A stretch of DNA of 64,000 bases from a virus. Below, piece by piece: positions 25,478 through 61,935 of the stretch; the stretch's first letter is position 1; each line of letters begins with the position of its first letter. Under the pieces are notes generated by a model, which ran no database searches, was not told the origin of the DNA, and saw only the letters and a program-made list of their open reading frames with translations. Position numbers and translations under genes: made by a program. Where the stretch lies: IMG/VR virus record IMGVR_UViG_3300026488_000022, positions 1 to 64,000 of that record, one strand, 5' to 3'.

Positions 25478-25482
25478 AAAGT

Positions 25483-27721: not shown

Positions 27722-27742
27722 AACTCCTTAAAACTTTTATAT

Positions 27743-27750: not shown

Positions 27751-27752
27751 CT

Positions 27753-27900
27753 TAAAAAATTCTATTATAATATATAAATAACTTTAAGGGTTTGGACACT
27801 TTGGACAGTAACAAAAAGCCCTAAAATTCGGACTTTTAACAACTTGCAAACATTTATAATTAGTAAAAAATATCATTTCGGCGGTCAAGAGGTTTTTATA
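27753..27900. repeat. Dispersed element, copy D (no promoter extension)
   Basis: Same core boxes and 38-bp spacer as copy A. Confidence 0.97.
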
Positions 27901-27921
27901 AAAAGAGAGAAAAGAAAAGAT

Positions 27922-28419: not shown

Positions 28420-28445
28420 TTTAAAACTCCTTTAATCTTTACATT

Positions 28446-28453
28446 TATATCAG
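28446..28453 (-). promoter_or_regulatory. Putative late promoter CTGATATA
   Basis: 27 bp upstream of start 28419. Confidence 0.6.
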
Positions 28454-29521: not shown

Positions 29522-29555
29522 TTATTATCCTTTATTAATTAAATTTAGTTAATAA

Positions 29556-29580
29556 AGCACACAAAAATTATTTGTGTGCT
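29556..29580 (-). terminator. Probable terminator after the major tail gene
   Basis: AGCACACAAA-5 nt-TTTGTGTGCT hairpin followed by TTATT. Confidence 0.6.
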
Positions 29581-30893: not shown

Positions 30894-30924
30894 TTTACCT
30901 TCCTTTTATTTATTCTACAAAAAT

Positions 30925-30932
30925 TATATCGG
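30925..30932 (-). promoter_or_regulatory. Putative late promoter CCGATATA
   Basis: 32 bp upstream of the major tail start. Confidence 0.7.
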
Positions 30933-30939
30933 ATAGGTA

Positions 30940-33638: not shown

Positions 33639-33639
33639 A

Positions 33640-34047
33640 TCAAATCCTTTTAATATACCTAACTTCTATATCTATCTTTGCAATAGCATAAGGATGAACT
33701 ATCCCACCTTCTCTTTTCATACTACTCACTGTCATATCAACAACACCCATAGGTTGCCATCTAATATCCTCTACAACCTCATAAACAACATCAATTAAAT
33801 CACTTAATATATCCTCATATTTATTTCTATGTTGTTTATTAAACACATAAACACTAATGTTACCAATATAATAAGCTTTTCTATTTGTTAAATTGTCTCT
33901 TTCTTTTTCCTCACTTTCATAAATCACACTAACAGCCGGAAATCTGTCTATTTGAGACCATAAAGGAACTATATTTTTATAAAACTTAACAAACAAATTC
34001 TTATCTTTTAAGCCTTGGACTATTTTCTCTACAATTTCTTTTCTCAT
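33640..34047 (-). CDS. Tail terminator protein
   Basis: R.EI...I...L start, FPAVSVIYESE, position in the neck module. Confidence 0.65.
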   Translation of the reverse strand: MRKEIVEKIVQGLKDKNLFVKFYKNIVPLWSQIDRFPAVSVIYESEEKERDNLTNRKAYYIGNISVYVFNKQHRNKYEDILSDLIDVVYEVVEDIRWQPMGVVDMTVSSMKREGGIVHPYAIAKIDIEVRYIKRI

Positions 34048-34126
34048 AATGAAAACCCTTTTAAAAATTCAATACATAACATCAATAAAATTACAAAATA
34101 AAATAAATTAGTACTTTTTTTAATTA

Positions 34127-34612
34127 TCATATCAGCTCCTTAGACTCTTTTAAAATCAATTCAAATAAATCTCCTACTGAAGTGATATTACCTCTACCTT
34201 TATCAAACAAAACATCATACATCCAATCTTTCCAATAAGGCACTTTTCCATCTTTTCTTTGGGGTTTTGCCATATCAGTAAATTTAGCATAAGGCACTCC
34301 TATTTCTGCCCAACTATGAATTATAAAACTTTCTCCTTTTTTATAACTCTCAACCTTTGTTTTAATACTATTAACTTGATTTCCACTAATTTTATAAGTA
34401 AATCTTCTTTTTAACGGTCTTCTTTTATGGAGGTATTCAACAGGAATAGGAGTACCTAATGCTCTTTTAAGTGCTTTTTTCCAAGCTTTTAAATCTAAAT
34501 CAAGATTTTTTGCTAAAAGTTCTAATTTATGAAAAGATAAATCGGGTAATTCTTTTTTAAGCCCTACCCAAGCCTCCCCGACTGATTTTTTTATCCTCAC
34601 ATTAGCTATCAT
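34127..34612 (-). CDS. Neck / tail completion protein (HK97 gp10-like)
   Basis: SGNQVNSIK, VPYAKFTD; basic; position. Confidence 0.55.
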   Translation of the reverse strand: MIANVRIKKSVGEAWVGLKKELPDLSFHKLELLAKNLDLDLKAWKKALKRALGTPIPVEYLHKRRPLKRRFTYKISGNQVNSIKTKVESYKKGESFIIHSWAEIGVPYAKFTDMAKPQRKDGKVPYWKDWMYDVLFDKGRGNITSVGDLFELILKESKELI

Positions 34613-35166
34613 AATCTAAATACCCTAAAAGAATTTAACATTTTATCTACAACAGCAGGAACTTCATCATTAACTTTCATACTTTCTCTAATGCCTGTGG
34701 ATAAAGAAGCTATGTTATCTGTATCTTTTGTTACGTCATTATAAAGTTTTTTTCCTAATAACAATAAACCTGATACCAACCCCTCAGGTATTAAATCAAT
34801 ATCATTATAACCTACCTTATATTCAATTCGCATAATCTGATAGTTCTCTATTGAAAATAAAACAGGCAGATAAATTCTATTTAATTCTCCTATTTCAAAA
34901 CTTAATAACACATCATTTTCAAGCTCCTCGCCATCAATCGTTATTTTTATAATTTCACTTATTAGACCTTTTTTTGTATAAATAGAGTTACCATAAATTT
35001 TATTAATGCGCTCAACTAAATCTCTTTCAAAAATTCCCACATTATAATAGTCATAAATATAACTCTCACTTATAATTAATATTTCTTTTAACAATTCATC
35101 TATTTCATCATCTTGAATATCTAAAACTTTTTTAAACTCTATTAACAAATCATCTATAAGAGCCAT
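34609..35166 (-). CDS. Head-tail adaptor (head completion) protein
   Basis: K..L.I.D...D..L, IEYKVGY...IPEGL, ends LNSFRVFRL. Confidence 0.75.
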   Translation of the reverse strand: MALIDDLLIEFKKVLDIQDDEIDELLKEILIISESYIYDYYNVGIFERDLVERINKIYGNSIYTKKGLISEIIKITIDGEELENDVLLSFEIGELNRIYLPVLFSIENYQIMRIEYKVGYNDIDLIPEGLVSGLLLLGKKLYNDVTKDTDNIASLSTGIRESMKVNDEVPAVVDKMLNSFRVFRL

Positions 35167-35206
35167 AACTTATCCTTTTATAAAACTTACAATTTTAGAC
35201 CAAAAA

Positions 35207-35485
35207 TCAACTATTTTCTTTTTTAGACTTTGCTTTTCTTTTCCTCGTTTGACTTTTGGTATGTAATTCGCTTGTGGTTTCCCTCTCTTTACGAAGTAAC
35301 TCCTTTTTAGAATTTTTAGTCGTATCTTTAATCTTTTCTATTAAAACAAATTCTTTTGGAAAAGTAGAAAGCAGATATTTACCAAGCTCTTCATCTACAA
35401 CATACAAACCATCATATCTATTAGGACTAAATAAAATCCCTCTAACCATAATACCTTTACCGATAACTTTAATTTTATATTTCAT
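35207..35485 (-). CDS. Small protein of the head-completion region
   Basis: 92 aa with basic tail; type usually found directly after major capsid genes. Confidence 0.5.
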   Translation of the reverse strand: MKYKIKVIGKGIMVRGILFSPNRYDGLYVVDEELGKYLLSTFPKEFVLIEKIKDTTKNSKKELLRKERETTSELHTKSQTRKRKAKSKKENS

Positions 35486-35516
35486 TATAAATCCTTTTAA
35501 TAAATGTATTTACTTA

Positions 35517-35524
35517 TATATCAG
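35517..35524 (-). promoter_or_regulatory. Putative late promoter CTGATATA
   Basis: 32 bp upstream of start 35485. Confidence 0.65.
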
Positions 35525-35714
35525 TATAAAATAAAAGTAAAATTTAATTTAAGAATTCTATTATAATATAATAATAACTTTAAGGGTTTGGACACTTTTG
35601 GACAGTAGCAGAAAGCCCTAAAATTCGGACTTTTAACAACTTGCAAACATTTATAATCAGTAAAAAATGTCATTTCGGCGGTCAAGAGTTTTTTATAATT
35701 TTTGTAAAAAACTC

Positions 35715-35743
35715 TTGACATAAAGTTAAAAGTGTTTTATAAT
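35715..35743 (+). promoter_or_regulatory. Consensus sigma70 early promoter (cassette type)
   Basis: TTGACA-17 bp-TATAAT. Confidence 0.88.
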
Positions 35744-35780
35744 TCTAAGCATAAAACAAAAAACAAAAGGAGAATTGAAA

Positions 35781-35906
35781 ATGAAAAGAGATTTTAATAT
35801 TTTAAAAATATATCAAAGAGAAATAAATTGCAGACCAAAAGTTGTTAAAAACAAAAAGAAATATACAAGGAAAGTAAAGCATAAAAAAGCTTTACTAAAC
35901 TTTTAA
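35781..35906 (+). CDS. 41-aa basic peptide, ArfA-like (alternative ribosome rescue factor resemblance)
   Basis: Not in the track. MKRDFNILKIYQREINCRPKVVKNKKKYTRKVKHKKALLNF, with promoter and AAGGAG RBS; RxxVxKNKK..YxRKxKH pattern. Confidence 0.55.
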   Translation: MKRDFNILKIYQREINCRPKVVKNKKKYTRKVKHKKALLNF

Positions 35907-37229
35907 ATCAGGCTCACCACCAAGTGGGTCTGTGCTTCCTACATTTGTAGGTTTGTTTTGCCCTTCTGAACTATTTTGACTCATTTTTACTAAATCTTGA
36001 AAGAATTGTGCTTCACTTCCTGTTAAAAATGCAGGAACAACATTTTTGTCAGCTCCTTCAAAATCCATTTCTGGTAAATCAACTAAATCTCTTGCCTCAT
36101 TTAATGTAGCAAGTCCTGTTGCAAACAATGTTCTTGCACTATCAGCTTTTACATCAAGTGCAGTATCAAGTTCTGTTATTCTTCCAAAATCAAACTCAAA
36201 ATAATATTTTCCATAACCAAATTGTTTCCCTAAAAAGAGATTAATTTGGTCTTGTATTCTATAAAGATAAGGTCTGACTGCAGTATTAAAAACAACTTTC
36301 ATTAATTCTTGAGGTTTTCCTGCACTTTTATCTTCTCCTCCTAAAACAAGAGAATTTAATTTAAAAACTCTTAAAACTCTTTTTTCACTTATATCAAGGC
36401 TATCTAATAACATTGCGTCTCTTGGACTTGCTTGTACTGTTTTATAATCCATTTTAGCGGGTAAAACAGCAATTCCTCTTCTCTCACTTCCTCCTTTACC
36501 ATATAAAGCATTGAATTGGTCTCTTAATTCATCTATTTGTTGAGGTGTTAGAGCATATTCTGCTTTTAAAATACCAGCTAAAATTACACTACCCTCATAA
36601 AACTCTTTTAAACTATCAATAGCGTCCTTTTCTAAAGTTAAAGTGTCAAGTAAAGGTGCTACACTCGGCAAACCGTAATATGCATTATTTAATGTTGGGT
36701 TAATAATCCAAATAAGTTCGTTTTCTTTATAAGCAATTTGGTCATTATAAATATACCCTTTAATAAATTTAGAGGCGTCAGGTACAACTTGCACTAAATG
36801 TGGTTGGGTTAAAAACCAAGTTTCATAACTTCCTTTAACGTTTTCAAAAGTTAAAGGCGCTACCCCTGAAAGTAATAAACCTTGAATTGCAAGTTCAATT
36901 ATAACTCCCCAGGACCAAAAAGGATTTGGTCTATATTCCCATTCTGCTAATTTTTTATCTTTAACAGGCAGTTTTTTACCCGATTTATCTAACCTATAAA
37001 GTCTTGGGATTGCTTGTCCTCCAGCTTTTGCGATATAATCAACTGCACTAAAAACAAGCTCACTTGTATGAAAAGTGTTTTCCATTCCACTTGTAGCAAG
37101 TTGATTGTTACCTAATTTATAATCCTCAGCTATTTTTTTATTTGCTTTTGTTGCCTTTGTGTCCATATAAACTATTGTTTGTTTTTCTGTTTTTATATCC
37201 TTAGGTTTTAAAAAATCAAATAATCCCAT
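35895..37229 (-). CDS. Portal protein (HK97 family)
   Basis: VFSAVDYIA, RPNPF, YYGLPSVAPL, AGILK, TLNEARDL. Confidence 0.92.
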   Translation of the reverse strand: MGLFDFLKPKDIKTEKQTIVYMDTKATKANKKIAEDYKLGNNQLATSGMENTFHTSELVFSAVDYIAKAGGQAIPRLYRLDKSGKKLPVKDKKLAEWEYRPNPFWSWGVIIELAIQGLLLSGVAPLTFENVKGSYETWFLTQPHLVQVVPDASKFIKGYIYNDQIAYKENELIWIINPTLNNAYYGLPSVAPLLDTLTLEKDAIDSLKEFYEGSVILAGILKAEYALTPQQIDELRDQFNALYGKGGSERRGIAVLPAKMDYKTVQASPRDAMLLDSLDISEKRVLRVFKLNSLVLGGEDKSAGKPQELMKVVFNTAVRPYLYRIQDQINLFLGKQFGYGKYYFEFDFGRITELDTALDVKADSARTLFATGLATLNEARDLVDLPEMDFEGADKNVVPAFLTGSEAQFFQDLVKMSQNSSEGQNKPTNVGSTDPLGGEPDLKV

Positions 37230-37260
37230 TTATATTCCTTTTTGTTATTTTACTATTAAA

Positions 37261-37268
37261 TATATCAG
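37261..37268 (-). promoter_or_regulatory. Putative late promoter CTGATATA
   Basis: 32 bp upstream of the portal start. Confidence 0.65.
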
Positions 37269-37289
37269 TATAAAAAACAAAAGGAGAAA

Positions 37290-37424
37290 AAATGAAAAAG
37301 AAGAAAGAGCGGAAGCTCAATTGAAGCTTGTTTTACAAACCTCAATTGAACGCCCATTTCAGGCGTTCTAAATCAAACACCCATTTCAGGTGTTTTAAAT
37401 TGAACACCCACCCCAGGTGTTCTA
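37290..37424 (-). ncRNA. Candidate late small RNA of three tandem 27-nt hairpins plus a terminal hairpin
   Basis: Units 37344-37370, 37371-37397, 37398-37424 with compensatory stem changes; upstream CCGATATA; U-rich end. Confidence 0.5.
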
Positions 37425-37428
37425 CTAT

Positions 37429-37436
37429 TATATCGG
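37429..37436 (-). promoter_or_regulatory. Putative late promoter CCGATATA not followed by a CDS
   Basis: Sits 5 bp from the hairpin array. Confidence 0.55.
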
Positions 37437-37439
37437 AAA

Positions 37440-38492
37440 TTAAACTAATCTTAATGACACATAATTTCCAACATAAGTTTTTTCACTTAAAGTAGCATCT
37501 GTGGTAAATAAAGGAAAATGTTTAATGCTTAAAGTTTCTTTAAAAAATTCACTAAAATAAACTTTTCCGTCTATTTCCTGTCTTAACCTAAATCTTAATT
37601 GGTTTGTTCTCCCCCATTGTCTTGTAGCTCCAATAAAATCAAAAAGAACTTCATTTTTAGTAAAAGCATATAAAGGATAATAACTGCCCCTTCTGTTTTG
37701 AGAAACACTACCTCTGTTTCCTGAATTATTAAAGTTTGTGTTTTTATCAAATCCCCATACTTCTAATTTTATTCCATCAGGAAAATCTTTCCCTAATTCA
37801 AAACCACCCGCAAACACAACATTAAAAAACCTTTTTTGTATTGTATATGTGTCACCTGAATTAAAACTTTGATAAGTAACATCCCAACTTGTTAAATCAC
37901 TATCATTCATAATTGCACTTTTTAAAAAACCATTCCCGTTAAATGCGTCTATATAAGATGTTTGAGGGATAAGGGCATTTCTTGCTTTAACATAGGAATT
38001 TCCTTCCTTTCTTGCCAATCTTAAATTGTATTGTCCGCCATATTTTAAAGGCTCTTCATAGACTATTTTAACAACCCCAGAAGGCGCACCATCTGGAAAT
38101 TCTAAATGTTCTACATAACCGGCAGGATTAATCACTTGTCCGTGAAAATCCCAATCTTCAAACAATTCGTCATTAATATAAACTTTTACTAAATCTTTTT
38201 TTGGAAAAATAACTTGTCTTAAAAACAAACGATTTTTGCTGGATAAATTATCCGTATGATTATAAAATACCATCACATTCTTTTTGCTGTTTTCAGCTCC
38301 AAAAGGTATTAAATGTTCATTATTTATTGCGTCATTTACGCTTTCATAAGAAATTGTATTATCTCGTACAACATAATATTTTAATTCAGTTCCATTATCC
38401 ACTATAACAAGCTGGTTTAATTGATAATTTTTTAAACTTATATAATCATTGCTTTTTAAAACCGGTAATTTATAATGAGTATAAGTTGCCAT
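37440..38492 (-). CDS. Modular fibre/decoration-like virion protein
   Basis: N-terminus resembles 47185-48747; remainder resembles the C-terminal part of 38502-40367. Confidence 0.5.
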   Translation of the reverse strand: MATYTHYKLPVLKSNDYISLKNYQLNQLVIVDNGTELKYYVVRDNTISYESVNDAINNEHLIPFGAENSKKNVMVFYNHTDNLSSKNRLFLRQVIFPKKDLVKVYINDELFEDWDFHGQVINPAGYVEHLEFPDGAPSGVVKIVYEEPLKYGGQYNLRLARKEGNSYVKARNALIPQTSYIDAFNGNGFLKSAIMNDSDLTSWDVTYQSFNSGDTYTIQKRFFNVVFAGGFELGKDFPDGIKLEVWGFDKNTNFNNSGNRGSVSQNRRGSYYPLYAFTKNEVLFDFIGATRQWGRTNQLRFRLRQEIDGKVYFSEFFKETLSIKHFPLFTTDATLSEKTYVGNYVSLRLV

Positions 38493-38501
38493 TTTTTCTC
38501 C

Positions 38502-40367
38502 TTATATTATTTTCATTAATTTGTAATGTCCTACAAAAGTATTGACATTATCTTCAGGGTCTGTTGTAAAAACAGGAAAATTACGCACACTAACTACACT
38601 TGATAACCATTGACTAAACAAAACATCTCCAGAATTATCAACTTTAATCATTCTAAAATGATATACACCGTTTTTGTCTAAATTATAAATTTTATTTCTT
38701 GTAAATTTTCCTACTGGAACTAACCTACCTTGTGCCTCCTTGTTATCAGGAATATGTTTTTTAGCTGGTGATTTACTGTCTCTTGCCCAAACTTCTATAA
38801 CAAAACCATCTGGCAAATCAGTTTCTTTTGGAAACTCAGCTATATAGGCTAAATTTGGACTTGCTTTTTCTACATCAATTGTATAATCACGATTATTGAC
38901 GCCTTTATAATGACAGATGTAACGCTCAAAACCATAACTTGTATTAACTAAATCTACACTATCTAAATAATATCTAATACCTCCTTGGTCAGTAATAAAT
39001 TTAGTTATCATTTTTGGTCTTGAAATTATAAAATTTGCACCTTCTTTTCTATATAAAACAAGCTTATAATCTCCAAGACCGATTGGCTCAACATATTCAA
39101 TTTTTATTTTATCATCATCGTTTAAAGCAGAATTAAACTTTAAATGAGTTGTATAATCTGGATTTAAACTTTCAACTTGGTCGCCAAAATCCCAATCTTC
39201 AAACACCTCATCATTAACATAAACTTTAATTAAATTTCTACTTTTATAAATATATCTTTTTAAAAACAACAAATTTTTACCTGAAATATCTTCCCCTTTT
39301 CTGTAAATAAAAACTTTATTAGTCGGGTCAGCACTTAGATTAAAACTAAAAAGCTCTCCTGTTGAGGTATCCACTCCAATTACATAAGGGTTATTAGGTT
39401 TTGCTTTAGGATTTTTACCATATGCATAAAAAATAGGATTATCTTCTTTTGTAAATTGATAATTGGTTTTTTTAACAATAAAATAAGGACTTAAACTTCC
39501 AAAATCATCACCTAAAACCACATCATATTGAGCATTATCACCATAAGCACCTACTACAAGTTGTGTGTCAGTTAAATTTCCGCCTTTCCCAGCAAGATAA
39601 GTTTGGTAAAAATTATCACCATACATTGTTAAGAATACTTGTTTGGCATACGGGTCAGCTGATGTAGAGGCAGTAAAACTTGCTCCTGTATAATTATCAT
39701 CATTATTTGTATTTGTAGCATTAAATTCTACAATACCATAAGCATTTCTTTCAATATAAACTCTTTGGACGTTTTCGGTGTTTTCATTAGGTACTAATTG
39801 TTCCCCTATGCCTGTATCTGCGTCTTCTTTTTTCCAATAAGTTTTAGTATCAATAATATCACAAATATCTTTAGGTGTGTATCTCCTCACTTCATTAACT
39901 TCACAAGGATTTTGTTTTTCGGCGTCTGATATTTTATGTATCTGAACTCCAAGATAAAACCAATTTGGATTACCTTCATCATCTGTTCTTGCCTCATATA
40001 AACCAGCTTTTTTCCTATTGAAAAAAACCCAAGTTCCTGTTGCTTTTTGTACTAACCATTGCTCACCGAGATGGTCTGCTGGGTCTGGCAAATCAGCATA
40101 AGTTTCAACTTCGCCTTCCCAACCATCAAAATTTGCATTACCTCCTAAGCTAACTTCAACCCAACTAAGCAAATCGTCTTGTAATTGCCAAAATTTTTGG
40201 TCTTCTTGATTATAAACAACCATTCCTACTTTTTTTCTTAAGTCAGGAATGTTATCACGTTCTTCAGTTGTTGCTACAACACGAAAACCACCTTCTAAAT
40301 GAATATCCTCAATTAACGGATATTCACCACCGCCTGTATCAAATTTACCTGTTATTTTAATTGCCAT
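38502..40367 (-). CDS. Fibre-like virion protein
   Basis: GGFRVVATTEERDNIP...GMVVY and GEVETYADLP motifs typical of phage fibres. Confidence 0.6.
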   Translation of the reverse strand: MAIKITGKFDTGGGEYPLIEDIHLEGGFRVVATTEERDNIPDLRKKVGMVVYNQEDQKFWQLQDDLLSWVEVSLGGNANFDGWEGEVETYADLPDPADHLGEQWLVQKATGTWVFFNRKKAGLYEARTDDEGNPNWFYLGVQIHKISDAEKQNPCEVNEVRRYTPKDICDIIDTKTYWKKEDADTGIGEQLVPNENTENVQRVYIERNAYGIVEFNATNTNNDDNYTGASFTASTSADPYAKQVFLTMYGDNFYQTYLAGKGGNLTDTQLVVGAYGDNAQYDVVLGDDFGSLSPYFIVKKTNYQFTKEDNPIFYAYGKNPKAKPNNPYVIGVDTSTGELFSFNLSADPTNKVFIYRKGEDISGKNLLFLKRYIYKSRNLIKVYVNDEVFEDWDFGDQVESLNPDYTTHLKFNSALNDDDKIKIEYVEPIGLGDYKLVLYRKEGANFIISRPKMITKFITDQGGIRYYLDSVDLVNTSYGFERYICHYKGVNNRDYTIDVEKASPNLAYIAEFPKETDLPDGFVIEVWARDSKSPAKKHIPDNKEAQGRLVPVGKFTRNKIYNLDKNGVYHFRMIKVDNSGDVLFSQWLSSVVSVRNFPVFTTDPEDNVNTFVGHYKLMKII

Positions 40368-40378
40368 TTAAAAACTCC

Positions 40379-41191
40379 TTAACTGATAGTACTATCTAAT
40401 GAACTACCTTGTTGATAAGCAGTTCGCAATACTTTATATTCAATTGTAATACCATAATCATTTGTTATATTTATATTATCCAAATAAGTAAAATCAACAG
40501 CAAAACCAGACTCATTGTCACGCCAATCATTGATATTTCCCCATTCAGCTGGATAAATAACATAACAATATTTATTTGTGCTTCCTATTGAAAAACTATA
40601 ATGTCCAGCATACCCACTTTTCAAGGCACTGTTTTCAAGATTTTTAACCTCATCTTCAGTTAATGTATCATTCACTGAAGTTCCCCAATAAACTCTTGCC
40701 CTCCAATAAACACGAAAATCACGGCTAAAGATTTGCCCTTTTGTATTAATTCCACTAATTCTCCAAGTATAAGAACTGTTAATTCCGCTTGAAGTTTTAT
40801 CGTCCCCAATATCTAAATCTTCCTGTCCATCGTTTGCTAAATTATCACCTAAAATCGCATTAGCATTTACATCTTTAATTCTAATTGAGTTTTCTTGAAT
40901 GTTTTCTGAATGACTTGTAGTCCATTTAAAAGTTCTAACTCCTCCGTTTATAACTTGGCCCACTTCTAACTGCGTAACTTGTCCATCAATATAAAAACTT
41001 GTAAAAGCAGGGTATTGATAAGGAAATAAAATCATTTTTAAAACTTCACAAGGTTGTAGCCCGTTTATATCCGTTCCTGCTTCTAAACCTCCGTGTGTTT
41101 CAGGCACTGTATCCTCAGTTTGCATAACACAACCAGCTTGGTCTCCTACCCCTATATCTGGATAAATTATAGAAAATTTATTATTTGCCAT
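40379..41191 (-). CDS. Virion structural protein with Ig-like domain
   Basis: GG...GT...ILFPYQYPAF, LEVGQ, YVIYPAEWG; own late promoter. Confidence 0.55.
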   Translation of the reverse strand: MANNKFSIIYPDIGVGDQAGCVMQTEDTVPETHGGLEAGTDINGLQPCEVLKMILFPYQYPAFTSFYIDGQVTQLEVGQVINGGVRTFKWTTSHSENIQENSIRIKDVNANAILGDNLANDGQEDLDIGDDKTSSGINSSYTWRISGINTKGQIFSRDFRVYWRARVYWGTSVNDTLTEDEVKNLENSALKSGYAGHYSFSIGSTNKYCYVIYPAEWGNINDWRDNESGFAVDFTYLDNINITNDYGITIEYKVLRTAYQQGSSLDSTIS

Positions 41192-41217
41192 ACTCAGCCT
41201 TTATTAGCATTTATACA

Positions 41218-41225
41218 TATATCAG
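41218..41225 (-). promoter_or_regulatory. Putative late promoter CTGATATA
   Basis: 27 bp upstream of start 41191. Confidence 0.65.
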
Positions 41226-41270
41226 TTATATTACTCTTATAAAAAATTTTAAAATTTTTGTAAAAAACTC

Positions 41271-41299
41271 TTGACATAAAGTAAAAAATATTTTATAAT
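41271..41299 (+). promoter_or_regulatory. Consensus sigma70 early promoter (cassette type, without core element)
   Basis: TTGACA-17 bp-TATAAT with the same flanks as copies C, E, F. Confidence 0.88.
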
Positions 41300-41332
41300 T
41301 CTAAATGTAAAACAAAAAACAAAGGAGAAAAT

Positions 41333-41902
41333 ATGGCAACAATTAAACAACTTGGAGAAATTAAAGTAGTAGAAATTAGAGGGGTTGGAGAAAACATCTC
41401 CGACGAAACTAAAAGAATTTTTTTAAGTAAAAGTGGGTTAAAAATAATTGAAGAATATGAAAGAACAAAAGAAAGCAATCCTGAGGAAGCACCAAGCTGG
41501 GAAGATGTTATTAACAAGCTTGAACTTTATTTTAACAAAAACAACAAACCTATTTTAACTGCTAAAAAAGATAAAACAAAAATAACAATTAACAAATATA
41601 TTGAAAGCAGTTATAGGGGAACTTCTTATATTGAAGAAACAAGTGAAGGAGTTACAATAGTTAGCGCAACAGGTGCTGGAAGACTTGGTGAGCATACTGA
41701 ATTTATTGCTACTATACCAGAAGGATGTTATGTTATTGTTTATAGTGGTGGGAGATATCACAAAGGTTGGACTTGTTTTAAAAATGTAGAAGGAGAACTT
41801 AAAACTTATGAATTTTACAATAGAGGCAAATATGTAGAAAAACCTGATTATGAAGACGCTAAAATAGCTTTTGGATTAATGGATTGTGCTTGTGAAGATT
41901 AA
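41333..41902 (+). CDS. Hypothetical cargo protein, antisense to the late operon
   Basis: Promoter, AAGGAG RBS and 189-aa ORF converging on terL. Confidence 0.75.
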   Translation: MATIKQLGEIKVVEIRGVGENISDETKRIFLSKSGLKIIEEYERTKESNPEEAPSWEDVINKLELYFNKNNKPILTAKKDKTKITINKYIESSYRGTSYIEETSEGVTIVSATGAGRLGEHTEFIATIPEGCYVIVYSGGRYHKGWTCFKNVEGELKTYEFYNRGKYVEKPDYEDAKIAFGLMDCACED

Positions 41903-41905
41903 TTT

Positions 41906-43264
41906 TTACACGACCTGAATTTGTAAATTTTGCAATTTCCACCACCCACTTGTTAAATACCTTAAAGCACCTACGGACAAATCAAAATGTCCGTCCTTGT
42001 TTCTTTCTATTGTTTTTCCATTGCTATTTTCTTTCCAATGAGCTAATTTTAATTCTTCAATCAATTGCATACAATTTTCTGATATGAATAATTTTCCTTT
42101 TTGAAATGCCGTGTTAATGTCCCTAATGCTTTCTACTAATTGAATTGGTGCGGGTTGTGTATAGTAACTATAACTATACGCCATATCTGCCATTGTCAAA
42201 CTTGCACTTGGGTCACAAAATCTTACAATCTGCATATCAGGATTTTCACAATATCTTTGTTCTATTTCTCTAAAATGTTTAATGTGCCATTCAATAGGCA
42301 TTTGCCCCGCCATATATTCATCTAAAACATAAATATTACCAGTCATTGGCTCTATCCAAGCCATAACAAAACTTGTATTGTCCCTAAAACCAATATCAAT
42401 TCCTACTGCAAACGTATCTTTTGTTGTCATTTTATTTTTTAAATCACTAACTCTAAATACATTTTTTTCTAAATCAAAAGCATAAAATACCTGCAAATCC
42501 TCACTAAACCCACTTTGAAACTCACATAAATATTCTTGTTCAAAACTTCTTTTATCAAGTTTTGCTTTTATTGACTCAATCATTTCTTTTGTTATCATAG
42601 GATTATCATAAACTGTAACTTTTTTACAAAAATAATCGTTTCTTTGCCCACATCTTTTCCATAACTTATAAAAATCATTATCAAAAGTTCTTGGTGTTCC
42701 TATAAAATAAGTTTTAGAAAACATAAAGCCGTTTTCATCAGTACCATAATCGTTTTGTGCTGGTGAAATGTAGGTTTCCCAAATTTCAAGAACATTATTT
42801 ATACTCGCAGTTTCATCAAAAATAACTAAACTGAATTTATCTCCAAGTGCATTTTCATAATTTTTTTCTGTAACTACACGAAATTTAGCACCATTTTCTA
42901 ATGTAAATGTTAAACCTTTCATATCCTTTGATTTAAAAGGTAATTGTAGTTTATTTACATCTTTTTCAACATTACTAAAAATAGCTTGTGCATTTGCAAA
43001 TGTAGGTGTTACTAATAATATACTTGCATTAGGAATTAAAAGTTCTGACAATGCAATTTTTGACATAATTGTAGATTTACCTGCCCTTCTTGACATTAAA
43101 AAAACACCAACATTAAAATCAGCTTTTTGTATCCTATCAATTATCTCTTGTTGATATTTTGTAGGTGTAAATTCTAACAATTTTAATACTTTATTATAAT
43201 CAATTTTTCTTTTTACTTTTTTATAAAGTTCTATTTCTTGATTTACAGGTTTAAATTCTGACAT
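41906..43264 (-). CDS. terL: Terminase large subunit
   Basis: Walker A SRRAGKS, Walker B LVIFDE, GTP coupling motif, FEQEYLCEF, nuclease GIDIG. Confidence 0.95.
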   Translation of the reverse strand: MSEFKPVNQEIELYKKVKRKIDYNKVLKLLEFTPTKYQQEIIDRIQKADFNVGVFLMSRRAGKSTIMSKIALSELLIPNASILLVTPTFANAQAIFSNVEKDVNKLQLPFKSKDMKGLTFTLENGAKFRVVTEKNYENALGDKFSLVIFDETASINNVLEIWETYISPAQNDYGTDENGFMFSKTYFIGTPRTFDNDFYKLWKRCGQRNDYFCKKVTVYDNPMITKEMIESIKAKLDKRSFEQEYLCEFQSGFSEDLQVFYAFDLEKNVFRVSDLKNKMTTKDTFAVGIDIGFRDNTSFVMAWIEPMTGNIYVLDEYMAGQMPIEWHIKHFREIEQRYCENPDMQIVRFCDPSASLTMADMAYSYSYYTQPAPIQLVESIRDINTAFQKGKLFISENCMQLIEELKLAHWKENSNGKTIERNKDGHFDLSVGALRYLTSGWWKLQNLQIQVV

Positions 43265-43299
43265 TAAATCTTCCTTTTTAATAGATTGTAATTTTAAGT

Positions 43300-43307
43300 T
43301 ATATCAG
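43300..43307 (-). promoter_or_regulatory. Putative late promoter CTGATATA
   Basis: 36 bp upstream of the terL start. Confidence 0.65.
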
Positions 43308-43497
43308 TATAAAATAAAAGTAAAATTTAATTTAAGAATTCTATTATAATATAATAATAACTTTAAGGGTTTGGACACTTTTGGACAGTAGCAGAAAGCC
43401 CTAAAATTCGGACTTTTAATAACTTGCAAACATTTATAATCAGTAAAAAATGTCATTTCGGCGGTCAAGAACATTTTATAATTTTTGTAAAAAACTC

Positions 43498-43526
43498 TTG
43501 ACATAAAGTAAAAAATGTTTTATAAT
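43498..43526 (+). promoter_or_regulatory. Consensus sigma70 early promoter (cassette type)
   Basis: TTGACA-17 bp-TATAAT. Confidence 0.88.
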
Positions 43527-43557
43527 TCCAATACAAATAAAAACAAAGGAGAATAAA

Positions 43558-44022
43558 ATGGAATATAGCGTAATAATAAATCTAACTCAACATAAAGCAA
43601 CTGAAGAACAAAAACAGGCAGGTGTGATAGACCTGCCAGAAAAATATCAAACAAAATTAAGAACACTTTTAACGTTTAATGAATTACCAAATTGTAAAGA
43701 AATCACTAATAGAGCTGAAAAAATAGGAGATTTAGTTTTAGAATTTTTATCAGATAATTTAAGTCCTGTTAAAAACGAAGTTGAACAAATTTTAAAATTA
43801 GATGAAATTAAACAAATTGAAGAATTTGAAAAACTAAATTTAGGTTTTATGATAGGTGGAGCGCCTTATCTTATGGGCGCTTTAGAAGAAGAACTAAGTT
43901 ATTTTGGGACACCTTTATATGCCTTTACAAAAAGAATTGTAGAAGAAATAAAAAAATCAGACGGAACAGTAGAAAAGAAAGCAATATTCAAACACGAAGG
44001 CTTTGTTCCTGCTTGTATTTAA
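43558..44022 (+). CDS. Csx20/Csx15-like CARF-related protein; candidate cyclic-oligoadenylate ring nuclease
   Basis: NLTQH..TEEQ, MIGGAPYLM, PLYAFTKR..EE....DG...K..IFKH..F match my recollection of the Csx20 pattern. Confidence 0.55.
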   Translation: MEYSVIINLTQHKATEEQKQAGVIDLPEKYQTKLRTLLTFNELPNCKEITNRAEKIGDLVLEFLSDNLSPVKNEVEQILKLDEIKQIEEFEKLNLGFMIGGAPYLMGALEEELSYFGTPLYAFTKRIVEEIKKSDGTVEKKAIFKHEGFVPACI

Positions 44023-44546
44023 TCTTTTATAACTTGATTTAAAATATTGACAAAAACATTTCCTGTTGTTCCTAATTTTTTTCTTTCTTCTTCTTTCATA
44101 ATATCATCAAGCATTTTAGCTACATCTAAAATATCTTTGTCAGTAGCATTAGCAAAATCACCTCCTTGTTTTTCAATTTGTTCTATTTTATCTTCTAATG
44201 TTCTCATAACAACAGAAACTACAACATTTTTAGCATTTTCTTTTATTTCTTTCATAATTGCATTATAAAAATCTTTAACATAAGGTTTTGATAAAGTTCT
44301 ACTAATATATTGATATGGCAAACCAAGTTCAATTGCTATTCTTTTATTGCTATAACCTTTTGCTTTCATTTCTACAATATATCTTTCAACTGTTGATAAA
44401 GGTTTATCGAAATTAACATTTGTAAATTCTAAAACTTCAGTAGAAACTTTATTGTTTTTAACATTAGCGTCTGGTAAATTTTCTAATTCTTCTTTTTCTA
44501 CAACTGCCACAGGAGTTATTTCTTTAGTTTCTTTATTCTTCATCAA
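44019..44546 (-). CDS. Probable terminase small subunit
   Basis: HTH (GYSNKRIAIELGLP..YIS), helical body with TDKDILD, nearest same-strand gene upstream of terL; T5-like. Confidence 0.7.
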   Translation of the reverse strand: MMKNKETKEITPVAVVEKEELENLPDANVKNNKVSTEVLEFTNVNFDKPLSTVERYIVEMKAKGYSNKRIAIELGLPYQYISRTLSKPYVKDFYNAIMKEIKENAKNVVVSVVMRTLEDKIEQIEKQGGDFANATDKDILDVAKMLDDIMKEEERKKLGTTGNVFVNILNQVIKD

Positions 44547-44778
44547 AATGCCTTTTATTTACAGTATTACTAAATTTAATTACTAAATCTTTAATTACTT
44601 CATCTTCTATTTTTATTTTCTTGTTTTTTTCTTGACAAACATTACAACGTGTTTTTAATTCTAATTCTTTTAGACTTTCAACAAAAAATACATTAGAACA
44701 AGAGCAAACAACTTCATATTTTTTTAATTCTTCATTATAAACATAATCTAATAAAGGACTAATTTTATCTTTTTTCAT
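44533..44778 (-). CDS. Small zinc-ribbon protein
   Basis: CSC and CNVC. Confidence 0.5.
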   Translation of the reverse strand: MKKDKISPLLDYVYNEELKKYEVVCSCSNVFFVESLKELELKTRCNVCQEKNKKIKIEDEVIKDLVIKFSNTVNKRHFDEE

Positions 44779-44809
44779 TTTAAACCTTTTTATTAATTAT
44801 AGCTTAATT

Positions 44810-45121
44810 TCATTTTATTTTCAATTTTTTTATAATTTCTGTTTCTATTAAATATAAAAAATTAGCTCCTTTGTGAGCCATAACACCGCCTATTGCACTT
44901 GCTCCATAAACGCTTATATCCATTAAATCATAAGCAAGAATAAAACCTATTAAACCTAAAAAACTTGCATAAAATAAATCTAAAAAATATAAAAAAATTT
45001 TAGATTTTAATGATTTATTTTGTAAATCTCTTTGTGTAAAATTAATAGACGTAGCCCAAATAATAAAACCCATTAATAAAATATATGCTTTTATAGAAAT
45101 TTCATCCCACTTATTTTTCAT
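44810..45121 (-). CDS. Small membrane protein, possible second holin
   Basis: Three hydrophobic segments, A.GG..AH.G motif, own late promoter. Confidence 0.5.
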   Translation of the reverse strand: MKNKWDEISIKAYILLMGFIIWATSINFTQRDLQNKSLKSKIFLYFLDLFYASFLGLIGFILAYDLMDISVYGASAIGGVMAHKGANFLYLIETEIIKKLKIK

Positions 45122-45154
45122 CTTTTAAAACCTTTATATTTTAATGTTATTAAA

Positions 45155-45162
45155 TATATCAG
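45155..45162 (-). promoter_or_regulatory. Putative late promoter CTGATATA
   Basis: 34 bp upstream of start 45121. Confidence 0.65.
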
Positions 45163-45320
45163 TATAAAAATAAAAGTAAAATTTAATTTAAAAAACTCTA
45201 TTATAATATATAAAAACTTTAAGGGTTTGGACACTTTGGACAGTAACAAAAAGCCCTAAAATTCGGACTTTGTTGATAACGTAAATTAAATTTTAGTTGT
45301 TTTTTGTTAATTTCGGCGGT
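45155..45320. repeat. Dispersed element, copy G (unrelated 38-bp spacer)
   Basis: Left box to 45271, spacer 45272-45309, ATTTCGGCGGT at 45310-45320 inside the DUF1353 3' end. Confidence 0.93.
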
Positions 45321-48776: not shown

Positions 48777-48784
48777 TATATCAG
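48777..48784 (-). promoter_or_regulatory. Putative late promoter CTGATATA
   Basis: 30 bp upstream of start 48747. Confidence 0.65.
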
Positions 48785-48805
48785 TTTAATATATAAGCTA
48801 TAATA

Positions 48806-48965
48806 ATTATAAAATGTTCTTGACCGCCGAAATGCTATTTTTCATTGTTTGTAGATAATTATAGTTTGTTAAAAGTCCGAATTTTAGGGCTTTCTGCTAC
48901 TGTCCAAAGTGTCCAAACCCTTAAAGTTATAATATATTATAATAGAGCTTTTAAAACAAAATTTT
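48806..48965. repeat. Dispersed element, copy H (inverted, divergent 38-bp spacer)
   Basis: ACCGCCGAAAT 48823-48833, spacer 48834-48871, AAAGTCCGAATTTTAGGGC...TGTCCAAAGTGTCCAAACCCTTAAAGT. Confidence 0.95.
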
Positions 48966-48974
48966 ATTTCTATC

Positions 48975-49003
48975 TTTACTTTTATTTTGCTTTTTGTTAT
49001 AAT
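48975..49003 (+). promoter_or_regulatory. Probable promoter of the Rep-like gene
   Basis: TTTACT-17 bp-TATAAT with extended -10 TG. Confidence 0.55.
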
Positions 49004-49041
49004 CTTTTAAAGATTTATAATTTATAAAAAGGAGTTGTAGA

Positions 49042-50928
49042 ATGATGAATGTAAGAAAAGAGAAAAGTAGAATTTTAACAGGAAATGATGTGATGAAAGA
49101 AAAAAAAGAAAAAATTTTTAAAGAAAAAACTTTAGAAATTTTATTTGTTAGAAAAACAAAAAAAGGAGAAATTTTAGCAACCCGACCGGATAAATTTGAA
49201 GATTTAATTGGGTTGCTAAAGAATTATACTATATTTATATATACTTTGTCAATACAAAAAGGACAATTTTTATCTATTTTTAATAATATTTTATTTTTAT
49301 TAGATAGAGCTGATAAAAATGATGTTTTTATCAAAAATTTTAAACATTTAATTTATGATTGGGCAACTAATAAAATTACAACAGACGAAATTGCAGATAA
49401 TTTTATTTCTTTTTATGAAGCCTTAACAGCTAATCATTTTGAAAGTAAAGGTTTTAGTTTTGTTGCTAATCCTTATAAAGTAACACAATATGATAAAGCA
49501 AGACCTAATACTAAAAATGGAAAGTTTTATAATATTTATAGAAAAGGTTATGAAGAAAATTTAGGTCTTGCTTTTGATAATGAAGTTTCTCTTGTTACTG
49601 CTTATTTCAAAATGCTTATAAATCCTCATTGTGCGTTTTATATTCCTAATAATAAATATTCTAAAAATTCTTTAAGATTTGATATTGATGATAAAAGTTT
49701 AAGTTTAGAAGAAATAACTTTATTAAGCAAGGCAACTATGAATGCTTTAAGTTTTAACGGACAAGTAGTAGTTTTAGAAACTACAAAAGGTTATCAAATT
49801 AGTATTTATATTCCTGTATTTTTTGTTAAAACATTTTTTGATAAAGATGATTATGTAGTTAGTGAAATTTTTGGTAAAAAAAGAAAAGTTACAAAAGCAT
49901 TTTACGCTTATCAATTTGTAGTTAAAAAATTTATTGAAAAATTTGAATTTTTAGCAAATGAATTATATGAAGTTAAATTAAAAATTGATAAATTTGCAGT
50001 CGAACAAGAAAAAGCAAGAATTTGGAGGAATTTTCAAGCTCATAATTATAATACATTTTCAATAACTGAAAATGATAGGACTACTATTTTTGATTTAGCT
50101 GGGGAATTTGAAAAAGAAGAAGAAAAAAAAGAAATAGTTAATTTATTTGAAGCTAAAACAATGAGTTATGCGGGTTTTAAACAAAAATTTTATAATGTTT
50201 ATAAATTTTCTAAAAAATATAAAGTAAATTTACCAGCTGTTAATTTAGAAATGGTAGGTAAATTTAGTGAAAATGCTGAAATGTTTTGGCTAACTAAAGC
50301 TTTAACTCATAAATTTATTATAAATTATAATCATTTATCAAATTTTAATATGCTTTTATTAGAGCTTTTCACTGCTATTGAAAATGATTTAATGTTTGTT
50401 TATGGTAATGAAAATGTTAAAGATGTTGTTTGGGATGTTTATGATTTTTATTTAGAAAATATGACAAAATACTTAAATGGACAAAAAATAGCAAGAAGTA
50501 AAACATTTAAAAAAATTACTGAAAGTTTAAAAGTAATTAAAAATGCTCCAGAAAATAAAAAAGAAAAGTTACAACAAGTTAAAATTGAAGTAGAAAAATT
50601 TGTAAATAATAAAGAAGATAAATTATCAGTTAGAAAATTAGCTGATTTAGTAAAAAATGTAGGGCTTGATTTTTCAAAATCTACAATCCATAATTACATT
50701 AAAAATGAAAATATGGATATTTTAGTAGAAATAATCGATATTTTATTAGAATATGTTATTATTTTAATGAACGGCAATAAACAAGAACAAGAAAAAGCAA
50801 TTTTATTATTAAAAATTGCTGATGAATTTCAAAGTGCTGTTAAGTTAATGGTAGTTATGATAAATCAAGGTTTGTTTTTACATAATGAAAAATTAAAAAA
50901 TTATTTTTACTACAATAAAAAGGAATGA
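49042..50928 (+). CDS. Putative AEP-superfamily replication initiator/primase with C-terminal HTH
   Basis: LRFDIDD (motif I), ETTKGYQI (motif II), KID...RIWR (motif III), LSVRKLAD...FSKSTIHNYIK HTH. Confidence 0.55.
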   Translation: MMNVRKEKSRILTGNDVMKEKKEKIFKEKTLEILFVRKTKKGEILATRPDKFEDLIGLLKNYTIFIYTLSIQKGQFLSIFNNILFLLDRADKNDVFIKNFKHLIYDWATNKITTDEIADNFISFYEALTANHFESKGFSFVANPYKVTQYDKARPNTKNGKFYNIYRKGYEENLGLAFDNEVSLVTAYFKMLINPHCAFYIPNNKYSKNSLRFDIDDKSLSLEEITLLSKATMNALSFNGQVVVLETTKGYQISIYIPVFFVKTFFDKDDYVVSEIFGKKRKVTKAFYAYQFVVKKFIEKFEFLANELYEVKLKIDKFAVEQEKARIWRNFQAHNYNTFSITENDRTTIFDLAGEFEKEEEKKEIVNLFEAKTMSYAGFKQKFYNVYKFSKKYKVNLPAVNLEMVGKFSENAEMFWLTKALTHKFIINYNHLSNFNMLLLELFTAIENDLMFVYGNENVKDVVWDVYDFYLENMTKYLNGQKIARSKTFKKITESLKVIKNAPENKKEKLQQVKIEVEKFVNNKEDKLSVRKLADLVKNVGLDFSKSTIHNYIKNENMDILVEIIDILLEYVIILMNGNKQEQEKAILLLKIADEFQSAVKLMVVMINQGLFLHNEKLKNYFYYNKKE

Positions 50929-55607: not shown

Positions 55608-56061
55608 CAAGAATTTTTTTGAAATGTTATATTAACATAATGTTTTTACTCTGTATATACTAAGCTAAAAAATAGTAATTGTTAGGTAATAGAAAGTCCG
55701 CCGGTTTGTTGAGCGGTCGGCAATCAAGGACCTCCCCCTTTTTTTGTTTGCTCCAGGTTCTTTCCATTTTGTTTTTATTTGGTGACAAACACTGATTTTT
55801 TACTTAACATAATGCATATTCTCTTGGAGAAAAAGCATTGTTTTCTTAAAGAAAATTTAAGTAGAAATAACGATTTTAAGTTTTGTTTAAGCTATTTATA
55901 AAAAGTTTTTTATTACTTGGAGGTGATTTTTGCTAAAAACACAAAATAAGTAGGTAGTTTATATAATAAGCGACAGGCACGATTTTTCGGTCAGTTTGTG
56001 TTCAAAAGGGTAGCGTTCTACAATAAAGGTGCAAAAAATGGTGCGTTTAGTAGGTCACATT

Positions 56062-56119
56062 GTAGCTTATATTTTCATTGCAAGTAGCTTATATTTTCAT
56101 TGCAAGTAGCTTATATTTT
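56062..56119. repeat. 22-bp tandem repeat, 2.6 copies
   Basis: GTAGCTTATATTTTCATTGCAA x2 plus GTAGCTTATATTTT. Confidence 0.95.
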
Positions 56120-56194
56120 TTGTTTTAAAAAAATTATATCTTATAGTCTCTGGCACTAACTTGATTAAAAATAGAGAGAGAAAGGGGAGGAGAT

Positions 56195-61047: not shown

Positions 61048-61935
61048 CTAAGAATAAAGAAGTTGTAAGAAATCGTTGAAGTCTTTTTGTCTGCTATTAT
61101 AATACTCTTTTATAAGAGGTTTTTTAGAGCTAATTGCAAGTTTTAAATCAAACCAATTTTTTAAATCTGATTTAAAAAATTTTCTAATCGCCTCTTGTCC
61201 TCTTTTATCATTATCAAGCATAATATAAATTGTATCTATACCTTTTTTTAAAAGATAACTGATTTTATAAGAATTAAAATTAACTGCCAAACCAAAATTT
61301 GCAATAGCTTGAATATTTAATTGATAAAGACTTAAAGCGTCCATAATGCCCTCAACAAGATAAATTTCATTTTGATTTAAGTCAATTCTAGGGTAAATTA
61401 AACTTTTTAAATCCAAGCCTTTTGCATATAAATATTTTGGCTCTAAATTTTTATCATAAGCTCTTGTATTATAGCCTATACAAATATTTTCATCATTATA
61501 AAAAGGAAAAATAACCCTGTCTTTATATAAACCTCTTCTGCAAACATAAAGGTCATATTTTTTAATTGTCTGAAAATTTAACCCCCGCCATTTTTTAGGT
61601 AACTCTTCATTTCTTGGAGGTAAAACAAAAGACTTTGTTTTTATTTGTTCTTGGTTTGTTAATTGTTGTAAAAGATTGTTGTATTTAGTTTGTTGTTGAA
61701 TTTCATAGAGTTCTTCGTCGGAGAAATTAACATTATCTAACCAAAAGTTTTTATTAACTTTGTAACCGCAACCAAAACACTCACCAAAACCCGTTTCAAA
61801 ATTAATCCACATACTTTCGTGTTTATCATCGTGTTCTGGGTTTAAGCAATTAACAAGGAAAAAATTATCCCCTGTTTGTTTATAATTAACTTTTAATTGT
61901 TTGAGTTTATTAATTATTAATAATTTTAAATTCAT
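61048..61935 (-). CDS. DnaG-type DNA primase (zinc finger + TOPRIM), T5-like
   Basis: CLNPEHDDKHES...CFGCG, RVIFP, PKY, LVEGIMDA, LDNDKRG, KDFND. Confidence 0.92.
   Translation of the reverse strand: MNLKLLIINKLKQLKVNYKQTGDNFFLVNCLNPEHDDKHESMWINFETGFGECFGCGYKVNKNFWLDNVNFSDEELYEIQQQTKYNNLLQQLTNQEQIKTKSFVLPPRNEELPKKWRGLNFQTIKKYDLYVCRRGLYKDRVIFPFYNDENICIGYNTRAYDKNLEPKYLYAKGLDLKSLIYPRIDLNQNEIYLVEGIMDALSLYQLNIQAIANFGLAVNFNSYKISYLLKKGIDTIYIMLDNDKRGQEAIRKFFKSDLKNWFDLKLAISSKKPLIKEYYNSRQKDFNDFLQLLYS

Follow-up and report, generated by a model that had tools for sequence, protein, structure and literature searches.

A candidate initiator of probable archaeo-eukaryotic primase type beside an operon-oriented repeat in an uncultured hydrothermal-vent phage

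Why would a phage with its own DnaG primase carry a second, plasmid-like primase candidate, and why does the corresponding gene lie beside the one copy of a repeated element that points the other way? This question is raised by positions 48,806 to 50,928 of a 64,000-nucleotide stretch of viral DNA (the window; positions 1 to 64,000 of IMG/VR record IMGVR_UViG_3300026488_000022). The parent record of 80,614 bp has direct terminal repeats and a G+C content of 26.5%, and was obtained from hydrothermal-vent metagenomes; the phage is uncultured. At this locus an open reading frame (ORF) for a 628-aa protein starts close to copy H of the element. A preliminary description had taken the protein for a plasmid-type Rep from the superfamily of archaeo-eukaryotic primases (AEP) and for the partner of all element copies. 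From the comparison of the phage (G000) with its two sister phages (G001 and G002) we arrive at a different overall explanation, for and against which we consider the case about evenly balanced: the protein would be an early AEP initiator acting at one phage origin, and the element would be a separate transcription cassette.

The 628-aa ORF is preceded by an AAGGAG ribosome-binding site 8 nt upstream of its ATG. The ORF as well as its DxD, TxKGYQ and D...R motifs, which the preliminary description had listed, were borne out, and the motifs are invariant in both homologues. For motif II the pattern across the three proteins is ETTKG[YW]Q. In some AEP families the motif II His gives way to Gln, Tyr, Arg or Lys. 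Its replacement by Gln has been reported for several families of mobile elements, namely PolpTN2-like, RepB', PrimQH and PrimHYQ and the PrimPol-PV1 families (PMC5862659). For motif III (hD/E, which supplies the third metal ligand) two invariant candidates were found: D267/D270, which are the residues aligned by hhalign, and D316, the choice of the preliminary description; the structural model is poor in this part of the protein. D316 lies in a region with the pattern IDKF..EQEKxRIWRN (residues 315-330) in the three proteins, and an Arg-containing motif IV has been described for AEPs (PMC5862659).

Membership in the AEP superfamily was assessed by comparing the alignment of the three proteins, using hhalign, with the N-terminal AEP+PriCT regions of 45 Pfam PriCT_1 proteins from ~800 Bacillota-type genomes. 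A score of 34.2 was obtained (P 6.8e-4, probability 27%). None of 115 column-shuffled queries reached this score (mean 14.1, standard deviation 2.4, maximum 21.9) and the reversed query scored 10.6, such that the real score lies ~8 standard deviations above the shuffle null. The motifs were aligned in correct order and spacing, with LRFDIDD on motif I (hhhDhD), ETTKGYQ on the motif II turn (T..G.H) and FFDKDDYVV on the Prim-Pol-type motif III. The AEP part alone scored 28.0 (P 8.8e-4; reached by 0 of 50 shuffles). In the ESM Atlas, residues 130-345 gave feature matches to clusters of 'DNA primase small subunit' and of AEP-TOTE at 0.92-0.93, and structure matches, based on the Atlas's own model, with TM values of 0.49-0.58 to LigD Prim-Pol, AEP-TOTE and PriCT_1 clusters. 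We treat both Atlas searches as a single source of evidence, in which scores of at least 0.9 arise for 4-10% of shuffled proteins. The sole stretch that AlphaFold modelled with confidence comprises a strand (210-215), a helix (222-236) and a hairpin (241-256), an order that AEP cores likewise show around motifs I and II. Taken as a whole, these comparisons, though weak or remote, make it quite probable that the protein belongs to the AEP superfamily.

Relatives of the protein are scarce. An exhaustive HMMER search of 1.8 billion representatives and a search of 5.8 billion clustered proteins returned only two, with 50% identity, both encoded on IMG/VR contigs (83.9 and 78.9 kb) that represent the sister phages. 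No match was obtained with tblastn against 50,697 phage records and 72,556 plasmids, with a domain-only profile search, or when genome contigs were searched with the three-sequence alignment. A terminase search for further relatives led to the same two sister phages. Bacilli metagenome-assembled genomes containing relatives of the phage methylase were rejected as related phages, having no terminase, element or AEP match.

The protein starts with a helical N-terminal extension of ~190 aa, which is followed by the AEP core (~195-340) and an all-helical C-terminal region. Within the latter, the helices of a putative helix-turn-helix (HTH) were modelled by AlphaFold with a pLDDT of 74-81. Profile searches of the protein revealed no P-loop or helicase family, and its translation contains no Walker A motif. 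Most likely the protein is a plasmid-Rep-like AEP, in which the primase core precedes an alpha-helical, HTH-bearing C-terminus and a helicase is lacking. It appears best described as a tiny new family of the helicase-less architectural type that combines an AEP core with an HTH tail, for which we infer primase activity. Of the earlier label 'plasmid-type AEP Rep' we keep a Rep-like AEP identity, by remote homology; a specific match to a named Rep family was not found.

The 628-aa ORF is the first of 17 ORFs in a rightward block of 6.5 kb (49042-55607). In all three phages a sigma-70-type promoter is found between the element and the AEP gene, with TTGACA-17-TAGAAT and TTGACA-17-TAAAAT at the same place in front of the homologous sister genes. 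With this sigma-70-like promoter of host type, which belongs to the AEP operon itself, the 628-aa protein is probably made early.

At the end of the block lies a non-coding gap (Table 1), which from its sequence is the best candidate for an origin, better than the elements. Over ~450 nt the gap contains blocks that are identical in the three phages, e.g. TTTACTTAACATAATGCATATTCTC and GGTCACATTGTAG. Tandem repeats follow directly after the conserved blocks: 2.6 perfect copies of a 22-bp unit in this phage (56062-56119), and 3.6 copies of a 33-bp unit as well as arrays of 35-72 bp in the sisters, whose gaps are located at the corresponding place (L013:1135-1839 and L016:18014-18929). The arrays of the three phages share a recurring TTGCAA-like word. 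The conserved block in front of the repeats would be a more likely binding region than the repeats themselves. The gap may represent either an origin or a non-coding RNA of unknown kind; no Rfam family matched it. GC skew only mirrors the coding strand and was not used for origin mapping.

In the mechanism that we propose, the 628-aa protein would act as an origin-specific initiator, as do ColE2 Rep and RepE/RepS. Its C-terminal region would bind a single phage origin, most likely the gap at the end of the AEP operon, and would help to open it. The AEP core would then make or position the first primer, which the phage family-A polymerase would extend, before the phage DnaB helicase and DnaG primase would run the fork and the lagging strand. 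The element would be a separate, transcription-linked unit, with copy H serving the AEP operon. What we infer from the DNA is that the protein binds an origin, which sequence this origin is, and what exactly the element does; the gene and its motifs, the remote homology to AEPs, the orientation of the elements, their synteny and the presence of DnaG, DnaB, PolA and ligase were observed.

Table 1. Features at and around the AEP-like gene (positions in the window; res, residues of the 628-aa protein)
Feature	Position	Strand	Remarks
Seven other element copies	span 7506..45271	-	cores at 7568, 17321, 23356, 27782, 35578, 43361, 45217; all intergenic
Late-type single-box promoter motif CYGATATA	48777..48784	-	30 nt before start of leftward 520-aa virion gene
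Element copy H	48799..48988	+	82-90% match to other copies as inverted repeat
Parts of copy H	within 48799..48988	+	box CTTGACCGCCGAAATG, 38-nt spacer, weak hairpin AAAGTCC..GGGCTTT with T run, core, AT-rich -10-like box
Core of copy H, GTGTCCAAACCCTTAAAG	48909-48926	+	conserved 18-nt core
Sigma-70-type promoter of AEP operon	48975..49003	+	TTTACT, 17 nt, TATAAT; TG before -10
AEP-like initiator/primase candidate gene, 628 aa	49042..50928	+	orphan family; 50% identity to its two relatives
Motif I candidate LRFDIDD, res 212-217	49675..49692	+	invariant in 3/3; modelled beta strand, pLDDT ~75
Motif II candidate ETTKGYQ, res 246-252	49777..49797	+	beta-hairpin turn; Gln in the usual His position
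Motif III candidate A FFDKDDYVV, res 265-273	49834..49860	+	invariant; aligned by hhalign to 'hD..GYhhhPPS' of Prim-Pol-type AEPs
Motif III/IV candidate B IDKFAVEQEKARIWRN, res 316-330	49987..50031	+	'D...R' of the preliminary description; invariant in three proteins
Putative helix-turn-helix, res 524-558	50611..50715	+	sub-threshold Pfam; helices 530-538, 546-554, 558-577
Non-coding convergence gap, 587 bp, end of AEP-led block	55608..56194		conserved blocks and tandem repeats
DnaG-type primase, zinc ribbon and TOPRIM	61048..61935	-	Toprim_2 E 3e-11, DNAG_N, CHC2 zinc ribbon

A number of observations weigh against an AEP initiator at this origin. By sequence and by profile the 628-aa protein was unmatched in Pfam, PHROGs, NCBIfam and PDB, and the Pfam models AEP-TOTE, Replicase (PF03090) and Prim-Pol, run on the phage genome alone, gave no match. 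The hhalign comparisons with a 14-sequence alignment of RepR (E 0.12, wrong region) and with the IEBH Rep (E 0.43) were negative. A PriCT-1 domain could be placed in three rival ways (281-335, 343-395, 402-424), none of which exceeded the shuffle null, and feature matches in the ESM Atlas to PriCT_1+HTH_23 clusters reached only 0.85-0.86. The Pfam matches of the HTH are sub-threshold (HTH_Tnp_Tc3_2, E 0.019; HTH_19, E 0.048, in two of three members; HTH_psq). The AlphaFold model, which was built on the three-sequence alignment, is poor, with a pLDDT of 44 for the whole protein and 55 for residues 115-345. An AEP was listed by none of four fold searches on such poor models (Foldseek PDB, Foldseek BFVD, VIA wide and VIA second look), which gave generic alpha/beta, alpha/beta-sandwich and ferredoxin-like folds with Z values of at most 7.3; we take the absent fold match as a problem of model quality and do not count it against an AEP fold with its RRM-like catalytic module. 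Regarding the gap, the repeat units are wholly different even between the sisters, though their 628-aa proteins are 85% identical, and therefore these repeats are not obviously iterons of the protein; a link between the protein and the 22-bp repeats was not found. Finally, the protein is a divergence outlier, as discussed below.

The blank searches of curated profiles and PDB, the generic alpha/beta sandwiches, the hhalign probability and the Atlas background among shuffled proteins would all be expected if the protein were no AEP at all but an orphan of unknown fold, AT-rich and Lys/Asp-rich, whose motifs resemble those of AEPs by chance. We consider this unlikely given the distance of the hhalign score from its null at the right order and spacing of three motifs, the Atlas feature and structure matches, which point to several AEP families, and the modelled secondary structure around the motifs, which fits an AEP core.

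The divergence of the protein leads to another alternative. With respect to the sisters it has only 50% identity, compared with 70-97% for most syntenic proteins, 97/93% for the terminase, 92/90% for DnaG and 90-94% for DnaG, DnaB and PolA, and the two sister proteins share 85% identity, which equals the genome median. Such outlier divergence also fits a role in conflict or specificity. The protein may have an AEP fold without being a lytic initiator, and may serve either in maintenance of a plasmid state, as in the plasmid prophage IEBH, or in conflict and anti-defence. With DnaB, DnaG, PolA and ligase 82-94% identical to the sisters, an outlier of 50% resembles arms-race or specificity genes. 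In agreement with this, the Atlas feature matches include AEP-TOTE clusters of conflict systems, the operon is full of small genes of unknown function, and anti-defence candidates occur in other early cassettes. In IEBH the potential replication protein, which we take to be the PrimHYQ-family AEP of PMC5862659, adjoins a gene with an MreB multidomain annotation in a plasmid-like region. Against this alternative, the scanned phage ORFs included no integrase, partition gene or repressor, the catalytic motifs are invariant, and the gene is kept in all three phages, where it heads a conserved operon next to the candidate origin. We regard it as an unlikely explanation, like that of a protein outside the AEP superfamily, and retain the early initiator as the preferred one.

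We next consider the element. In the whole 80.6-kb genome there are eight copies, seven on one strand and copy H on the opposite one. The distance between copy H and the ATG of the 628-aa ORF is 54-73 bp, depending on where the copy is considered to end, close to the 77 bp given before. An 18-nt core with the consensus GTGTCC-rrAs-CCTTAAAG is present in 8, 4 and 5 copies in the three phages (whole genomes for the sisters). All 17 cores (8/8, 4/4 and 5/5) are intergenic and have the same orientation as the downstream gene. They occupy syntenic sites across the phages, before the tape-measure, terminase and AEP genes and others; in the order of the seven minus-strand cores in Table 1, the downstream operons are those of FEN-RNR (RNR, ribonucleotide reductase), a 630-aa gene, the tape measure, the head protease/capsid, neck/tail, the terminase and a 103-aa gene. 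In the 25-kb block of replication genes (56-80 kb) no element copy was found. Copy H is therefore the only inverted copy with respect to the strand; with respect to transcription it is not, because the operon that it serves is inverted too. Its distribution makes the element more likely an intergenic cassette that is tied to transcription, and fixed in the direction of the operon downstream, than an origin.

Candidate roles for the element, in view of its parts, are those of an operator, of a site for antitermination or of a promoter belonging to another class. Its core holds two or three direct GTCC(A/G)AA repeats; a weak terminator-like hairpin with T run is found upstream and a genome-specific -10-like box downstream of it. 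Three element sites abut outward-facing perfect sigma-70 promoter cassettes. Two conserved boxes are exactly 38 nt apart in three different spacer versions; in the sister phages this box-spacer-box arrangement is not conserved, and only the core is. The element had no match in Rfam and no tRNA was found. A structured RNA was dropped as an interpretation, since the folds are no more stable than those of shuffles (z -0.3 to -1.0). In contigs of four DNA runs we saw only assembly breaks at the repeats and noisy joints, and no sign that a copy of the element had been gained or lost.

A separate motif, CYGATATA, marks the late-type promoters. Twelve intergenic copies were located in the virion region, each of them on the minus strand (17227, 23296, 25470, 28446, 30925, 35517, 37261, 37429, 41218, 43300, 45155 and 48777), and the motif is found likewise in both sister phages. 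Eleven of the 12 copies precede the start of a virion gene by 27-36 nt; the remaining one, at 37429, precedes 27-bp hairpin-containing repeats (2.8 copies at 37349-37424), which lie just upstream of the portal gene and have similar counterparts in the sisters (G001 40576-40653, G002 19417-19497). Because CYGATATA occurs both with and without the element, we dropped the element core as a late promoter. The phage also encodes a 200-aa protein with sigma-70 region 2 at 78647-79249 (-) of the genome, corresponding to L003:14647-15249.

The position of the core upstream of the AEP gene in all three phages raises the possibility that the 628-aa protein binds it in an autoregulatory manner, which would speak against a full separation of protein and element. 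More generally, the protein might act through its HTH as a regulator at the GTCC cores of copy H and of the other element-bearing operons, and possibly couple their expression to replication. Rep proteins commonly autoregulate, and the element, being distinct from the late promoter motif, requires some other factor. Moreover, the region of the recognition helix changes between the phages (KSTIHNYIK in G000 compared with KSTLYEYIK and KSTLYDYIR in the sisters) together with the core, from CCAAACCC to CCGGAGCC and CCGAAGCC. With three nested genomes, in which the protein is an outlier only with respect to G000, this co-variation is however confounded by phylogeny. Binding is putative, and an HTH_Mga-like 92-aa protein in the same operon, the phage sigma factor and fast-evolving small proteins are other candidates. 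Protein and element are known from the same three phages only: besides ~116 single and apparently chance matches, the 14-base core pattern recovered from viral contigs the two sister phages and no further relatives. Their co-occurrence therefore has no discriminating power. A regulatory partnership of this kind appears to us quite unlikely. It is very unlikely that the AEP-HTH protein is a trans partner of the GTCC-core elements at the eight operon boundaries that primes there or couples replication to the expression of virion operons; if true, this would constitute a dispersed, orientation-locked network of Rep sites in a phage equipped with a conventional DnaB-DnaG replisome as well.

The least probable explanation is that of the preliminary description: the eight elements would have their cognate Rep in this protein, with its HTH as the binding part, melting of the 38-bp spacer and priming at every copy of a dispersed multi-origin system; or the protein would mobilise them as non-autonomous units. 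The core in front of the gene, the constant distance between the boxes in three spacer versions, and the direct GTCC(A/G)AA repeats, as in a protein site, agree with such a role, as does the fact that protein and elements both diverge more than the virion genes between G000 and the sisters. RSF1010 RepB' furthermore provides an analogy, as it primes at oppositely oriented ssi sites. All 17 copies follow transcription, though, such that the orientation of H is explained by its operon and needs no replication logic; copies G and H are separated by 3.6 kb and four virion genes, unlike paired ssi sites, and priming on both strands is not needed to account for their opposition. Nor do copies A-F appear as extra same-strand start sites, since their cores track transcription, are intergenic and syntenic, and are absent from the 25-kb replication block. 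The spacer, said to be a measured melt region, contains ~79% AT by count (genome, 73.5%), which is not richer than other intergenic DNA, and the box-spacer-box arrangement is not kept in the sisters. The terminator-like and -10-like parts, and the phylogenetic confounding of the co-variation noted above, likewise speak against a cognate Rep, and synteny in phages with terminases of 93-97% identity argues against recent mobility.

The genes around the locus agree with a divergence point as it had been described: leftward virion genes (terminase, portal, capsid, tape measure, tail) start at 48747, and the 17-ORF block runs rightward from 49042. From 56195 to the genome end, leftward genes for replication and nucleotide metabolism follow, which encode an ArdA-like protein, an ATP-dependent ligase, DnaG, a family-A polymerase, an SNF2 helicase, ThyX with an intein, DnaB, a dCMP deaminase, a methylase and the sigma-70-region-2 protein. 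The separate TOPRIM primase announced at 61048 was confirmed by its domains (Table 1) and has 90-92% identity to the DnaG of the sister phages. The family-A polymerase reads as two ORFs of 613 and 305 aa with ~200 nt between them (L003:859-1776 and L003:1993-3834, -), and ThyX is split by an intein with an HNH endonuclease (L003:6571-8358, -). The DNA ligase gene contains 3.1 copies of a 17-bp unit with a C6 run (58857-58908), a feature that the ligase genes of both sister phages have too. Within the AEP operon, the small proteins of 51892-52410, 52750-53193 and 55308-55607 have diverged as strongly as the 628-aa protein, indicative of a gene-by-gene mosaic. Downstream of element copy A, the RNR genes (3125-6529) are unmatched in one sister and have 44-55% identity in the other, and the FEN-like gene on their flank (6539-7459) has 90% identity to either sister; the RNR region beside copy A looks like a module swap.

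If the 628-aa protein is an active AEP initiator, the vent phages would count among the very few viruses encoding primases of both types, as the presence of an AEP together with DnaG in one phage is unusual. A sequence-orphan family would then be added to the helicase-less AEP initiators known from plasmids and plasmid prophages, in the setting of a large phage of virulent appearance that has its own full replisome. Such a phage would provide a clean system for studying the transition from an origin-specific AEP to a DnaB-DnaG fork. A dispersed, Rep-primed multi-origin system would be remarkable if true and is not favoured by the evidence. A useful result is that the only inverted copy of the element is explained by operon direction; work on the element should therefore start from transcription. 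In this respect mycobacteriophage stoperators are comparable, being likewise intergenic regulatory repeats with locked orientation. The element is set apart from them by its length of 110-250 nt and a conserved 18-nt core unlike any searched family.

According to a survey from 2016 viruses carry either an AEP or DnaG, with RM378 as the sole exception having both (PMC4889955). This Rhodothermus phage likewise combines an AEP-type and a DnaG-type primase in one genome; the likeness lies in the combination of primases, and the 628-aa protein is not close to any deposited phage protein by tblastn. In its architecture the protein rather resembles ColE2 Rep, RepE/RepS and PrimHYQ (including that of Bacillus phage IEBH), which are composed of AEP, PriCT-1 and HTH without a helicase; the same source names the RSF1010 RepB' family and describes unwinding by PriCT-1+HTH in the ColE2-type Rep (PMC5862659). 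RepE/RepS/RepR (Inc18) and PrimHYQ of the PrimPol-PV1 supergroup share the uniform primase-PriCT-1-HTH layout as well as a relaxed motif II, which reads SDKGYQAYF in RepR and TTKGYQISIY in the 628-aa protein. The same SDKGYQAYF stands in a truncated RepR/Inc18-type Rep gene of a Bacillota genome, L069 (G355:C1:2175460-2178609), which ends prematurely within its PriCT-1 region. The family of the phage protein has no profile-level similarity to the RepR family. Elements with families of the RepE/RepS/PrimHYQ type are usually without a replicative helicase (PMC5862659), whereas this phage encodes DnaB.

In comparison with ColE2 Rep the 628-aa protein is twice as long, with a ~190-aa N-terminal extension; its genome has no match to PF03090 Replicase, and a PriCT-1 domain was not demonstrable. 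A ColE2-like origin directly 3' of the gene is absent, as the next ORF overlaps by 4 nt, and the setting of the gene, unlike that of ColE2 plasmids, is a phage of 80 kb that looks virulent and supplies DnaB and DnaG itself. Like the ColE2-type Rep, the protein would have an AEP core without a helicase, and behind the core comes a helical region with a putative HTH. ColE2 depends on host Pol I, and the likeness would extend to this partner polymerase, which is again of family A (Pol I-type) and here encoded by the phage.

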